NCBI GenBank assembly: GCA_044229845.1
Contig: JBGASG010000007.1
Coordinates: 192,001-256,000 of the forward strand
Origin: Candidatus Obscuribacteraceae bacterium
Lineage (GTDB): Bacteria; Cyanobacteriota; Vampirovibrionia; Obscuribacterales; Obscuribacteraceae
Direction: 5' to 3'
DNA: 64,000 bases
The stretch's first letter is position 1, and every line of letters starts with the position of its first letter. Positions 24,022 through 63,578 of the stretch are shown here, one piece after another. The translations under genes and the position numbers were made by a program. The notes beneath the pieces were generated by a model, which searched no databases, was not told where the DNA came from, and saw nothing but the letters and a program-made list of their open reading frames with translations.

Positions 24022-24157
24022 CGCGCGCTATTAGCTTGTTTCTGATCTCTGTCGGCAGATCTTTTTTGGGGCTGGCATTGAACTTTTTTTGCCTCTTGGC
24101 CGTTTAAAAGTAAAGACAACAAATGCAGTTCGGCGCCCTACGGCTATGGAGGTGTCT

Positions 24158-25711
24158 ATGTTTGCACGTGTCCTATCAGGCAGCGTCAGCGGAGTTGAGG
24201 CCTATCGAATTGATGTGGAGGTGGTTTGCCGCAGTGGTATTGGACAGATCAATATTGTCGGATTGCCCGATGCAGCTGTTAAAGAGGCGCAGGACAGAGT
24301 GCGTTCAGCGATCACAGCTTGCGAATATTTGATGCCTTCATGCAGCAAGTGGGTGATCAACCTTGCACCGGCCGACATGCGCAAGGCGGGGCCAGCCTTC
24401 GACTTGCCGATGGCGGTGGGCATGCTGGCTTCGAGCGGGCGCCTCTGCCAGGAACATCTGGGTGATTTCTGGCTGGTCGGTGAAGTTGGATTGGACGGAT
24501 CGATTCGTCCGATTTCCGGGGTGCTGCCGATTGCCATGGCCTGTTTGCGAGAGGGGGTGACCAAGATGATCGTGCCCGAGGCCAATGCCGCAGAAGCGGC
24601 GCTGGTAGTGGGACTGGATGTCTATCCAGTCAGCCATCTAAAGCAGGTTTGCGCATTGCTCAATGACCCTACCAGCGGTGCGCGCTATTATGTCAATCAC
24701 GAGGAAACCTTCGCGCGGTTGTCGCGGAACGGACGCTTCGACATTGATTACATTGATGTGAAAGGACAGGAGTACGCTAAGCGTGCCATGGCGATCGCCG
24801 CGGCCGGACGCCACAATCTATTGATGGTCGGACCGCCCGGTACCGGCAAATCCATGCTTGCCCAGCGGCTGCCGACGATCATGCCGCCGCTGGAATTCGT
24901 TGAAGCTCTAGAGTTGACTAAGCTCTACAGTGTGGCTGGGCTGCTGGCGTCGAAAGGCGGGATCATAAGCGAGCGACCGTTTCGGTCACCGCACCACAGC
25001 GCCTCCATGAGTGGTCTCGTCGGTGGTGGCAACTATCCCCGCCCGGGAGAGATTTCTTTGAGTCACCTCGGCGTGCTGTTTCTGGATGAGCTGACTGAAT
25101 TTCCGCGTCACTATCTGGACTGTCTGCGGCAGCCGCTGGAAAGCGGACAGGTGACAATCAGCCGTGCCAATCTCAGCCTTACCTATCCGGCACAGTTCTT
25201 GCTGGTCTGTGCCTGCAACCCCTGTCCATGCGGCTATCGCGGTGACCCGTATCGCAGCTGCACCTGTTCGTCTGGGCAGGCAGATCGGTACTGGTCGCGA
25301 CTGTCTGGACCATTTTTGGATCGGTTGGATTTAAATGTTCCAGTCGGACGTTTGTCTGCTGAAGACATTAACGGTCTGGGGACCGCTCCCCCCACCAGTT
25401 CGGAAACGCTGCGCTTAAAAGTACTGCGTGCAGTAGATCGGCAGAAGGAGCGCAATCAAACAGTCGATTACTTCTACTACAATTCGCAAATGCCGCCGGC
25501 AGCTGTTAAAAAGTTCTGTCCGATCGGCGAACAAGCACGCCAGTTAATGTCGCGAGCCGTTGACAGGATGGGACTGAGCGCTCGTGGGCACGACCGGATA
25601 CTGCGGGTGGCTCGCACCATTGCCGATCTGGATGGATTCGATGACGTGACTTTGTCGCATGTTGCAGAAGCAATAAGCTATCGGCTGCTCAGACAGCCGA
25701 TACCCTTCTAG
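24158..25711 (+). CDS. comM: YifB/ComM Mg-chelatase-like AAA+ ATPase
   Basis: IVGLPD, NLAPAD, GPPGTGKSML, PFRSPHH, LFLDE, NPCPCG and SGPFLDR. Confidence 0.93.
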   Translation: MFARVLSGSVSGVEAYRIDVEVVCRSGIGQINIVGLPDAAVKEAQDRVRSAITACEYLMPSCSKWVINLAPADMRKAGPAFDLPMAVGMLASSGRLCQEHLGDFWLVGEVGLDGSIRPISGVLPIAMACLREGVTKMIVPEANAAEAALVVGLDVYPVSHLKQVCALLNDPTSGARYYVNHEETFARLSRNGRFDIDYIDVKGQEYAKRAMAIAAAGRHNLLMVGPPGTGKSMLAQRLPTIMPPLEFVEALELTKLYSVAGLLASKGGIISERPFRSPHHSASMSGLVGGGNYPRPGEISLSHLGVLFLDELTEFPRHYLDCLRQPLESGQVTISRANLSLTYPAQFLLVCACNPCPCGYRGDPYRSCTCSSGQADRYWSRLSGPFLDRLDLNVPVGRLSAEDINGLGTAPPTSSETLRLKVLRAVDRQKERNQTVDYFYYNSQMPPAAVKKFCPIGEQARQLMSRAVDRMGLSARGHDRILRVARTIADLDGFDDVTLSHVAEAISYRLLRQPIPF

Positions 25712-26548: not shown

Positions 26549-26584
26549 TCTAGAATCTCAACCGATATCGGTTGAGATTCTAGA
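26549..26584. repeat. Palindromic repeat copy 1 (36 bp, perfect)
   Basis: TCTAGAATCTCAACCGAT|ATCGGTTGAGATTCTAGA between convergent stops; its end overlaps the lysC stop codon. Confidence 0.95.
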
Positions 26585-38087: not shown

Positions 38088-38108
38088 AATCTCAACCGAT
38101 ATCGGTTG
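38088..38108. repeat. Palindromic repeat copy 2
   Basis: AATCTCAACCGATATCGGTTG, about 40 bp upstream of the mdh start. Confidence 0.92.
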
Positions 38109-39112: not shown

Positions 39113-39160
39113 AACTCAACCGATATCGGTTGAGTTCCGCGATCTGAACCGATATCGGTT
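39113..39160. repeat. Palindromic repeat copies 3 and 4 (tandem pair)
   Basis: AACTCAACCGATATCGGTTGAGTT (39113-39136) and ATCTGAACCGATATCGGTT (39142-39160). Confidence 0.93.
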
Positions 39161-44092: not shown

Positions 44093-44120
44093 AGATCTCA
44101 ACCGATATCGGTTGAGATCT
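44093..44120. repeat. Palindromic repeat copy 5 (28 bp, perfect)
   Basis: AGATCTCAACCGAT|ATCGGTTGAGATCT. Confidence 0.95.
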
Positions 44121-49688: not shown

Positions 49689-49709
49689 AATCTCAACCGA
49701 TATCGGTTG
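49689..49709. repeat. Palindromic repeat copy 6
   Basis: AATCTCAACCGATATCGGTTG, about 25 bp upstream of the lipA start. Confidence 0.92.
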
Positions 49710-55101: not shown

Positions 55102-55121
55102 ATCTGAACCGATATCGGTTC
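55102..55121. repeat. Palindromic repeat copy 7
   Basis: ATCTGAACCGATATCGGTTC downstream of tpiA. Confidence 0.92.
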
Positions 55122-58290: not shown

Positions 58291-58314
58291 ATCTCAACCG
58301 ATATCGGTTGAGAT
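58291..58314. repeat. Palindromic repeat copy 8 (24 bp, perfect)
   Basis: ATCTCAACCGAT|ATCGGTTGAGAT followed by a T tract. Confidence 0.95.
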
Positions 58315-62444: not shown

Positions 62445-62482
62445 AAGAAAAATCTGAACCGATATCGGTTCAGATTTTTCTT
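62445..62482. repeat. Palindromic repeat copy 9 (38 bp, perfect, the longest)
   Basis: AAGAAAAATCTGAACCGAT|ATCGGTTCAGATTTTTCTT. Confidence 0.95.
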
Positions 62483-62543
62483 TCGTCGATTGAACTTTTT
62501 ACCCGCTTGCGACGTTGTATACCTAGGCACATCGAGAGATACC

Positions 62544-63578
62544 ATGAACGAACTTCCATCCAGGCAATTGGACGACGACGCCAGCGCGAGCTTCATCGCA
62601 GAGTTCGACAGGCGCTTCCCCACTAACTTCCACTGCGTTATCGAACTGCGTCGCAGGGCTACAGGCGAGCAAGACCTTGTCTGCCAATGCGGAAGCGGCA
62701 ACATCAAGATAAAGGATGATCGGAACGCGGAATGTCTTGAATGCGGGGAGCAATTCTGGTTGCTGGCGGATACCTTTTTTCATGGCATACGCAGACCTCG
62801 GGCTTATTTGCTGTTGATTGAAATGTTCGCAGAAGGTGTATTCATCAATACGTCCCAGTTTCAGAAGGAGGCGCAGGTTGCATACTCGACAGCTCTGGGC
62901 ATCTTCAAGAAGTTAACCATGGTTATCGCCGGCGGCATGAATGACGGTGTTGAAGTTCCGTCGCACCTTTTTTCTCCGGGTTTCTGCAAGCGAAGCAAAG
63001 TCACACCTGCCGGAGAGCACCCTCGAAATGAAGAACGAGTTGCAGCTCCTCATCTAAATCCCAACCTGTCCATTCGGCAAGTAGACTCCTTGATACCAAA
63101 TCCGGTGACCGATGAAAGCGCTTTGTCAGACGCGGACCTGGAAGTCCTCAATATGCTGACTGCGGACCCCATCCAATTTGATGCACTATTCGAGCGGACA
63201 GAAATGAGTGTGAGTACTCTGCTTTCTTCACTAACCGTCCTTGAGTTGTCTGGATTCGTCCTGCGTTTGAGTGCAGACAGATATGCATTGAGCCCGGAGG
63301 TTCGAACTAATCCAAATGATGATACCGTCGACTCCGACCGGCTCCCGGTGCGACAGGCGATTCTGGAAACAGTGGCCACGATTCTCAACTGGATAAAGAG
63401 TAGTTTCCACGGTATCAGTCGAAAATATCTTCAGAACTATCTTGCAGCGTATTGGTGTCTGAGAGACAGAGCGACCTGGAATCCGGGCGCGCTTGCTCGA
63501 GCATGTATCGATGCCGATGCCATAAGCGATCAGGTAATCCTTGCTTATGTCTCACCGCCCCTTGTCCGAATGATTTGA
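62544..63578 (+). CDS. IS1595/ISXO2-transposase-derived protein with an internal DprA-like winged helix
   Basis: RFPT..C, CQCG...CLECG, TFFHG, HTH-like QKEAQVAYSTA, winged-helix-like LSDADLEVL...LTVLELSGFV...RY, and C-terminal FHGISRKYLQNYL. Confidence 0.72.
   Translation: MNELPSRQLDDDASASFIAEFDRRFPTNFHCVIELRRRATGEQDLVCQCGSGNIKIKDDRNAECLECGEQFWLLADTFFHGIRRPRAYLLLIEMFAEGVFINTSQFQKEAQVAYSTALGIFKKLTMVIAGGMNDGVEVPSHLFSPGFCKRSKVTPAGEHPRNEERVAAPHLNPNLSIRQVDSLIPNPVTDESALSDADLEVLNMLTADPIQFDALFERTEMSVSTLLSSLTVLELSGFVLRLSADRYALSPEVRTNPNDDTVDSDRLPVRQAILETVATILNWIKSSFHGISRKYLQNYLAAYWCLRDRATWNPGALARACIDADAISDQVILAYVSPPLVRMI

Follow-up and report, generated by a model that had tools for sequence, protein, structure and literature searches.

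To our knowledge, bacteria rarely have domesticated transposases; the case known to involve a palindrome, that of RAYT proteins and REP sequences, keeps its enzyme. In the REP/REPIN-RAYT system, as the reports on it describe it, a domesticated transposase gene is accompanied by a cognate palindrome (PMC2817692, PMC3686654, PMC5581495). Several paralogues can occur, each with its own class of palindromes; the sites are intergenic, form tandem arrays, depend on the gene being present and were in one report found to cluster near it. REP abundance follows the cognate RAYT gene (PMC3686654), and RAYTs have been read as domesticated (PMC5581495). The pairing of gene and palindrome, the multiple paralogues and the placement of the sites all have a counterpart at the locus described here, which seems to work most like REP/RAYT.

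Features of Merlin/IS1595 elements, with likely domesticated copies in ciliates, are described in PMC8101967. The IS1595 transposases (ISXO2-like) have a zinc ribbon, a helix-turn-helix (HTH), C-terminal helices and an RNase H core with a catalytic triad; the elements have terminal repeats and an 8-bp duplication and occur as near-identical mobile copies. MatP/matS, SlmA/SBS and ParB/parS have palindromic sites restricted to a single region of the chromosome, to which a dimer presumably binds; they are single conserved genes with sites placed by ori/ter. Lastly, the transformation helicase ComM can extend or collapse D-loops in vitro; as far as we know, DprA, at D-loops, is its only loader found so far. 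In DprA, a winged helix is joined to an ssDNA-binding Rossmann domain; this winged helix binds ComM, not DNA, and its ComM contact in V. cholerae is made up of L350, E353 and L354 (10.1101/2024.10.21.619469).

The gene considered here (62544..63578, + strand; P0001, 344 aa) lies in a window of 64,000 nucleotides from a Candidatus Obscuribacteraceae genome assembled in 22 contigs (G000). A congeneric genome (G001) and a one-contig genome (G039) recur below. The gene is a real chimera, made up of an IS1595 shell without DDE core and with a DprA winged helix inside. The motifs from which the preliminary description had deduced this make-up are all in place, within an intact frame of 344 residues.

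When 33 aligned homologues (A1) are set against six canonical IS1595 transposases from related genomes, the homology of the shell is confirmed at both ends. Residues 18-133 match with an hhalign value of 99.6 (E 2e-24), and residues 280-332 with 96.5 (E 9e-10); residues 130-170 give no hhalign match to the canonical transposases. The first segment corresponds to the zinc ribbon and HTH (62595..62942, + strand), the likely reader of the palindrome described below. The zinc-ribbon residues C47, C49, C64 and C67 are invariant in the alignment, and the Pfam model Zn_ribbon_IS1595 matches 9 of the 33 homologues at E<=0.1. The second segment corresponds to the C-terminal helices (FHGISRKYLQNYL), followed by a family-specific YVSPP tail (63381..63575, + strand). 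This tail extends beyond the canonical IS1595 stop and may be derived from the old right end. Genome G067 has three canonical IS1595 copies (L138-L140; 99-100% identical, 23-bp terminal repeats, 8-bp duplications, third catalytic position Asp) in which the last codons reach into the right end.

The core itself is gone. What remains is a leftover of its strand 1, reading VEVPS where VEVDE is expected, followed by the family motif KRS.ETP..HP..E (62949..63032, + strand), which beyond FK.S is absent from a sister clade without winged helix (A3). The first-Asp motif is present in 18/18 canonical transposases and in none of 82 members with the winged helix or 17 members without it, so that the view of the protein as catalytically dead holds. 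All three catalytic positions are missing, as is the K-R pair that is invariant in the 18 canonical enzymes. The match to DDE_Tnp_IS1595 is confined to residues 275-301 (13.5 bits for a cut-off of 27), and NF033547 scores 22.4 for a cut-off of 75. In an AlphaFold2 model of the 344-aa protein (pLDDT 75, pTM 0.54), strands are limited to the zinc ribbon, the wing and residues 136-139 and 340-343; the five-stranded RNase H sheet was not found in it, in line with the earlier proposal. In the IS1595 relatives of this lineage, which we take to be ISSod11-like, the third catalytic position is His or Asp. The HUH tyrosine transposase (Y1) domain was searched for as well and gave no Pfam or NCBIfam match at E<=1.

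The segment 63123..63290 (+ strand), proposed from the start to be a winged helix, matches Pfam DprA_WH above cut-off over residues 189-243 (E 2.3e-11), and the model folds residues 193-251 accordingly. It is the sole DprA match, the Rossmann domain (DNA_processg_A) being absent. The chimera is thus not an IS1595 element (no triad, ends or identical copies), not a RAYT (no HUH domain) and not a DprA (no Rossmann domain). Its winged helix is nearest to the C-terminus of the host family's own DprA: a profile built from this domain of the family gives 72-106 bits with the DprAs of the host family (9/9) and 28-59 bits with 31 other DprAs of the phylum. Either it was captured from the host lineage's own dprA, or it co-evolved with the same partner. 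The true dprA of the source genome lies elsewhere (C1:1014489-1015751).

The preliminary description had suggested a family of DNA-binding proteins, and this probably applies to the HTH region only, where residues 76-125 carry a median net charge of +4.5. The winged helix is acidic (median net charge -3, negative in 70 of 80 copies, -6 in the window copy), with almost no basic residue in its helix 3. For this reason, and because its DprA counterpart binds ComM and not DNA, it is unlikely to be a DNA reader. The winged helix of the host DprA is likewise acidic and shares with the chimera the Pfam domain and a conserved L-E-L-x-G helix end; in the chimera, L233, E234 and L235 are kept in 95%, 94% and 71% of the 80 copies. 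Mapped by spacing alone, E234 and L235 of helix 3 correspond to E353 and L354 of V. cholerae. The position three before E234 is Thr, in the host DprA too, where the V. cholerae interface has Leu. The segment is therefore best regarded as a putative ComM-binding module that is joined, in contrast to DprA, to a site-specific transposase shell. The partner that we propose is available: comM is present in 39 of the 41 genomes searched, and one copy lies in the window (24079..25711, + strand, its promoter at 24079-24103; PDB 8RXD, ComM, E 4.5e-113; TIGR00368 above cut-off). A further protein, encoded at L016:1039-1683 of genome G017, joins a Cro/C1-type HTH to a near-host DprA winged helix; G017 is without the core-less family, and in this fusion the module was captured a second time, independently.

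Profile searches at E<=1e-25 find the family in 77 of 87 genomes of the host family and in 0/3 of the order's other family; nine genomes of other orders give short winged-helix matches only. The source names of the homologues point to Obscuribacterales/Melainabacteria, and 670 clusters at 50% identity score E<=1e-30. No named family was matched, and no description of this core-less family was found in the literature searched, which supports its suspected novelty. The source genome has five intact copies, the others 27-33% identical to the window copy and all paralogues 27-49% identical to each other. All five are syntenic in G001. The window gene has a dN/dS of 0.17 between the two genomes (17 non-synonymous and 29 synonymous changes over 344 codons), the winged helix alone 0.18 and the other paralogues 0.18-0.38; such purifying selection is in line with the idea of domestication. 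The G001 orthologue of the C8 copy has a frameshift within the winged helix, and broken copies occur in G056 (L117-L118) and G039 (L194/L197), one interrupted by some 1.2 kb of other DNA and one falling into two frames.

Some genomes carry no copy and others up to 20 or more, with lineage-specific expansions. In the tree, copies within a genome mostly form one clade (17 in G056, 8 in G044, 7 in G058, 9 in G067), and neighbour genes are common mainly within a genus, with almost no synteny between genera; hence, spread to new loci has been repeated but not recent. Could the gene still be mobile, as a non-autonomous IS1595 derivative on which active relatives act in trans? The 17 copies of one clade in G056 and the active canonical IS1595 of G067, with copies 99-100% identical, would suit this explanation, which we nevertheless consider very improbable. 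An inverted repeat with an 8-bp duplication is found at 0 of 84 family loci within 300 bp and 0 of 77 within 900 bp, whereas 4 of 6 canonical elements pass in both ranges (swapped controls 0/150 and 1/80); the lack of terminal repeats first noticed at this locus is thus a family trait. Moreover, paralogues are only 25-81% identical over all genomes, synteny with G001 is complete and no canonical IS1595 was found in the source genome. Missing ends, divergent copies and synteny already largely refute such mobility: the chimera is found as vertical, single-locus orthologues.

The order of events can also be read from the tree. The sister clade, 21 proteins of 230-262 aa, has neither core nor winged helix (support 0.999; main clade 0.993; both together 0.82), and five copies of G067 without winged helix nest among those that have it. 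Therefore, of the proposal that the winged helix replaced the core, the loss of one and the presence of the other stand, whereas a one-step swap is improbable. In the simplest reading, the core would have been lost first and the winged helix captured later, with occasional loss.

Upstream of the gene, the sequence TGAAC-TTTTT-N12-CGT (62491..62515, + strand) resembles a promoter for an ECF sigma factor. We take it as such because of the consensus that we assume for these promoters and because an ECF sigma gene bears the same promoter. The pattern TGAAC-N17-CGT precedes 75 of 79 loci with the winged helix and 7 of 7 without it, and occurs downstream in 1 of 78 controls. In the source genome, TGAACTTTT-N13-CGT (spacer 17) is found 35 times, each other spacer from 13 to 21 giving 0-1. 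These promoters have 37 downstream frames, of which 20, picked by eye, were scanned and five more are the paralogues. The scanned frames include genes of transformation and recombination (comM, comEC, a comF-like gene, yraN and recA), genes of replication and repair (priA, dnaB, dnaE and sbcC), an ECF sigma, a TnpB, two DUF6088 proteins, four HTH proteins (two with a PLD domain), a DUF1800 protein, a Metal_resist protein and one without family. The promoter precedes comM in 22 of 30 genomes; it was not found at eight dprA loci. Overall, a regulon of about 35 promoters takes shape that covers genes of transformation, replication restart and repair, besides envelope-type genes and a TnpB, in a lineage without cultured model. 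The candidate sigma factor (C4:10453-11076) carries the promoter itself, and the dnaB gene (C18:312423-314978) contains an intein with a LAGLIDADG domain.

Just before the promoter lies a perfect palindrome of 38 bp (62445..62482; core AACCGATATCGGTT), the predicted cognate site of the window copy. Satellite palindromes, all kept in G001, are found at 26549..26584 (36 bp, perfect), 38093..38108, 39113..39160 (a doublet, 29 bp apart), 44093..44120 (28 bp, perfect), 49694..49709, 55106..55121 and 58291..58314. The 14-bp core has 9 copies in the window for 0.01 expected. Over the family, a palindrome stands upstream of the promoter at 66 of 75 loci (control 3/78) and at 4 of 7 loci of members without winged helix; one upstream site is the rule, a site in the downstream flank is not. 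In G067, four members without winged helix (L124, L125, L126 and L129) are preceded by long tandem arrays whose 35-37-bp units contain a half-degenerate site. The commonest 12-bp palindromes of the source genome are AGCGATATCGCT (36 copies), AGTGATATCACT (34) and ACCGATATCGGT (27, for 0.58 expected). Thus, the gene is one part of a larger unit comprising a palindrome, an ECF-type promoter and a regional set of predicted cognate palindromes. Winged helix, tail, promoter and palindromes are what the chimera adds to an IS1595 transposase.

An upstream palindrome and a retained HTH would also fit a plain transcription factor that regulates itself and a local regulon and has the palindrome as its operator. 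We hold this to be quite improbable: the distance from palindrome to promoter is not fixed (27-147 bp), sites form tandem arrays, and the DprA-type acidic winged helix is left without a reason. In addition, with crude gene calls, 48 of 56 site groups are intergenic; convergent genes flank 9 of these 48, and there is no preference for divergent gaps (10/48 site groups versus 55/215 gaps).

In the source genome, each paralogue lies inside its own territory of 100-150 kb, populated by the variant of its upstream palindrome. If tandem copies are counted as one and the gene's own site is left out, 14 of the 20 satellite groups of the window gene's variant lie within 80 kb of it, for 0.43 expected; the counts are 9/18 for the C3 gene, 11/20 for the C18 gene and 5/10 for the C10 gene. 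For cross pairs of gene and variant the count is 0-1; the exception is the C8 gene, near which the C3 and C18 variants number 4-5. Pooled over seven genes, the density per 100 kb falls outward from 14.5 (0-10 kb) through 12.3, 9.6, 3.1 (40-60 kb), 2.8 and 0.75 to 0.14 (120-200 kb). As a prediction test, two new variants were read upstream of two genes of G039 and then searched: 21/21 WCCGTTAACGGW sites fall within 3.42-4.01 Mb, the TCC form round the gene at 3.558 Mb, the ACC form round that at 3.966 Mb and mixed forms mostly between. Within 50 kb of a family gene, the ACC form counts 16/41 sites in G039 (3.3 expected) and 8/14 in G067 (1.9 expected). In a hand tally in which kin are not independent, 13/13 genomes without the family have 0-2 exact sites and 61/78 with it have at least 3; the other 17 have fewer than 3 exact ACC sites and may use other variants. 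The HTH residues show no clear correspondence to the site variant.

The 22 contigs of the source genome, with each variant mainly on one of them, raise the question whether the territories stem from a binning artefact or from the import of large segments, each donor bringing its own repeat. Such an origin is hardly conceivable: territories cover no more than part of their contigs, include core genes (recG and prfA, for example), become gradually sparser to either side and recur in G001. As a general cause, it is ruled out by the complete, one-contig chromosome of G039. Territories are not universal, however. In G013 (192 kb, two genes), G044 (100 kb) and G010 (60 kb), the genes' own upstream sites were the only ones found.

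A territory of this size and site number recalls MatP/matS, and a dead transposase that still pairs ends might bridge its own sites and fold a nucleoid domain of 100-150 kb. The lack of enrichment between divergent genes is consistent with such an organiser, as is the conservation of site cores in G001 (13/13 aligned groups, of 15). MatP-type systems are, however, unlike the chimera, of which there are up to 20 paralogues, each the centre of a territory of its own. Copy number and synteny are too variable between lineages, 10 of the 87 family genomes are without the gene, three genomes are without territories and the promoter belongs to a stress/competence regulon; we consider this explanation rather unlikely.

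More may be said for a RAYT-like writer, in which the protein, through a new active site or a partner enzyme, copies the palindrome into nearby intergenic DNA. The territories would then be selfish by-products, and any link to ComM would serve copying. Sites of 26-28 bp, mostly intergenic and in tandem arrays of 29-44 bp, are compatible with it. So are the long, perfect upstream palindromes of G013 and G010, whose locus-specific arms of up to 31 bp suggest templated copying, and the residues R150, S151, T154, E163, R293, K294, Y295, Q297 and Y299, invariant in the homologue alignment. A precedent is the report of REPs piled up near a rayt gene in Thauera (PMC2817692). The comparison of three territories between G000 and G001 points both ways. 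Among 49 site groups, 28 have the same number of sites, 13 differ in tandem number, one has lost a base and 7 cannot be aligned; none of the 42 alignable groups has an empty counterpart. Furthermore, neither a DDE nor an HUH motif was found, and the sister clade is without the ETP..HP..E motif, which is variable in G056. RAYTs also differ in kind, being HUH/tyrosine enzymes with an active site, whereas the chimera descends from a DDE enzyme and has no known active site left; REPs, whose GTAG-type head is accompanied by a loop, number hundreds genome-wide, whereas here 10-35 sites without loop form a local gradient. A writer is accordingly somewhat unlikely. Near a site doublet (about 100 bp away), G001 carries about 10 kb of DNA absent from G000 (C12, about 57.5-67.8 kb), with a junction overlap of roughly 49 bp.

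The gene has lost its core, is vertically kept under purifying selection and has a winged helix nearest to the DprA of the host family, a promoter also borne by comM and other genes of transformation and recombination, and an upstream palindrome; in the source genome and some others, a territory is centred on each paralogue. Our best guess, still a tentative one, is that this dead, domesticated IS1595 derivative serves as a cis-acting, sequence-specific adaptor for ComM that biases transformation near its own gene. In this model, a dimer would read the 26-28-bp palindrome through the zinc ribbon and HTH that formerly read the IS ends, and the winged helix would dock ComM the way DprA does. When the ECF regulon is switched on, ComM would be loaded at the sites and branch migration of incoming DNA would be biased locally. 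As in its transposase ancestors, the protein would act mostly near its own gene, so that only nearby sites would be made or kept; the transposase of IS1 is reported to favour action in cis (PMC12903888). Such a preference would confine action to tens of kilobases, and the private variants and gradients would be explained, since the benefit would fall on linked DNA.

The bias could act in either direction. Reports on comM note that it is often disrupted by mobile elements and propose that ComM takes part in their removal (PMC12378983, PMC12637031). For this reason, protection of the gene's own region against replacement or deletion is the preferred direction, the alternative being promotion of integration. 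Members without winged helix keep the promoter and some a palindrome, so the shell presumably has a role without ComM as well. The making of new sites and of new gene copies is left unexplained by the adaptor model.

In broader terms, the territory pattern hints at an undescribed, gene-steered local recombination. A possible, if more doubtful, formulation is that of a selfish or domesticated element in which a dead DDE transposase with a captured ComM-loading domain and a competence promoter builds a private, sequence-coded territory round each of its genes. There it would control the recombination of incoming DNA, and paralogues of diverging site specificity would divide the chromosome among them. 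We regard the whole system as categorically new, its mechanism being one that we infer. If the link to ComM is true, the chimera is a site-specific loader for this helicase. The hundreds of core-less paralogues come with natural pairs of protein and site variant, with a measurable gradient round each gene. They could inform on the reach of a cis-preferring protein along the chromosome (about 20-60 kb here), on how repeated palindromes arise and persist, and on the ways in which resident elements resist the curing of chromosomes by transformation or turn it to their use. A second recurring palindrome, with core AACACTAGTGTT, is found in the source genome at C8:96148, C8:475037 and C22:177848. 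One of its copies lies just upstream of an HTH gene with an ECF-type promoter; this palindrome is possibly a separate operator.
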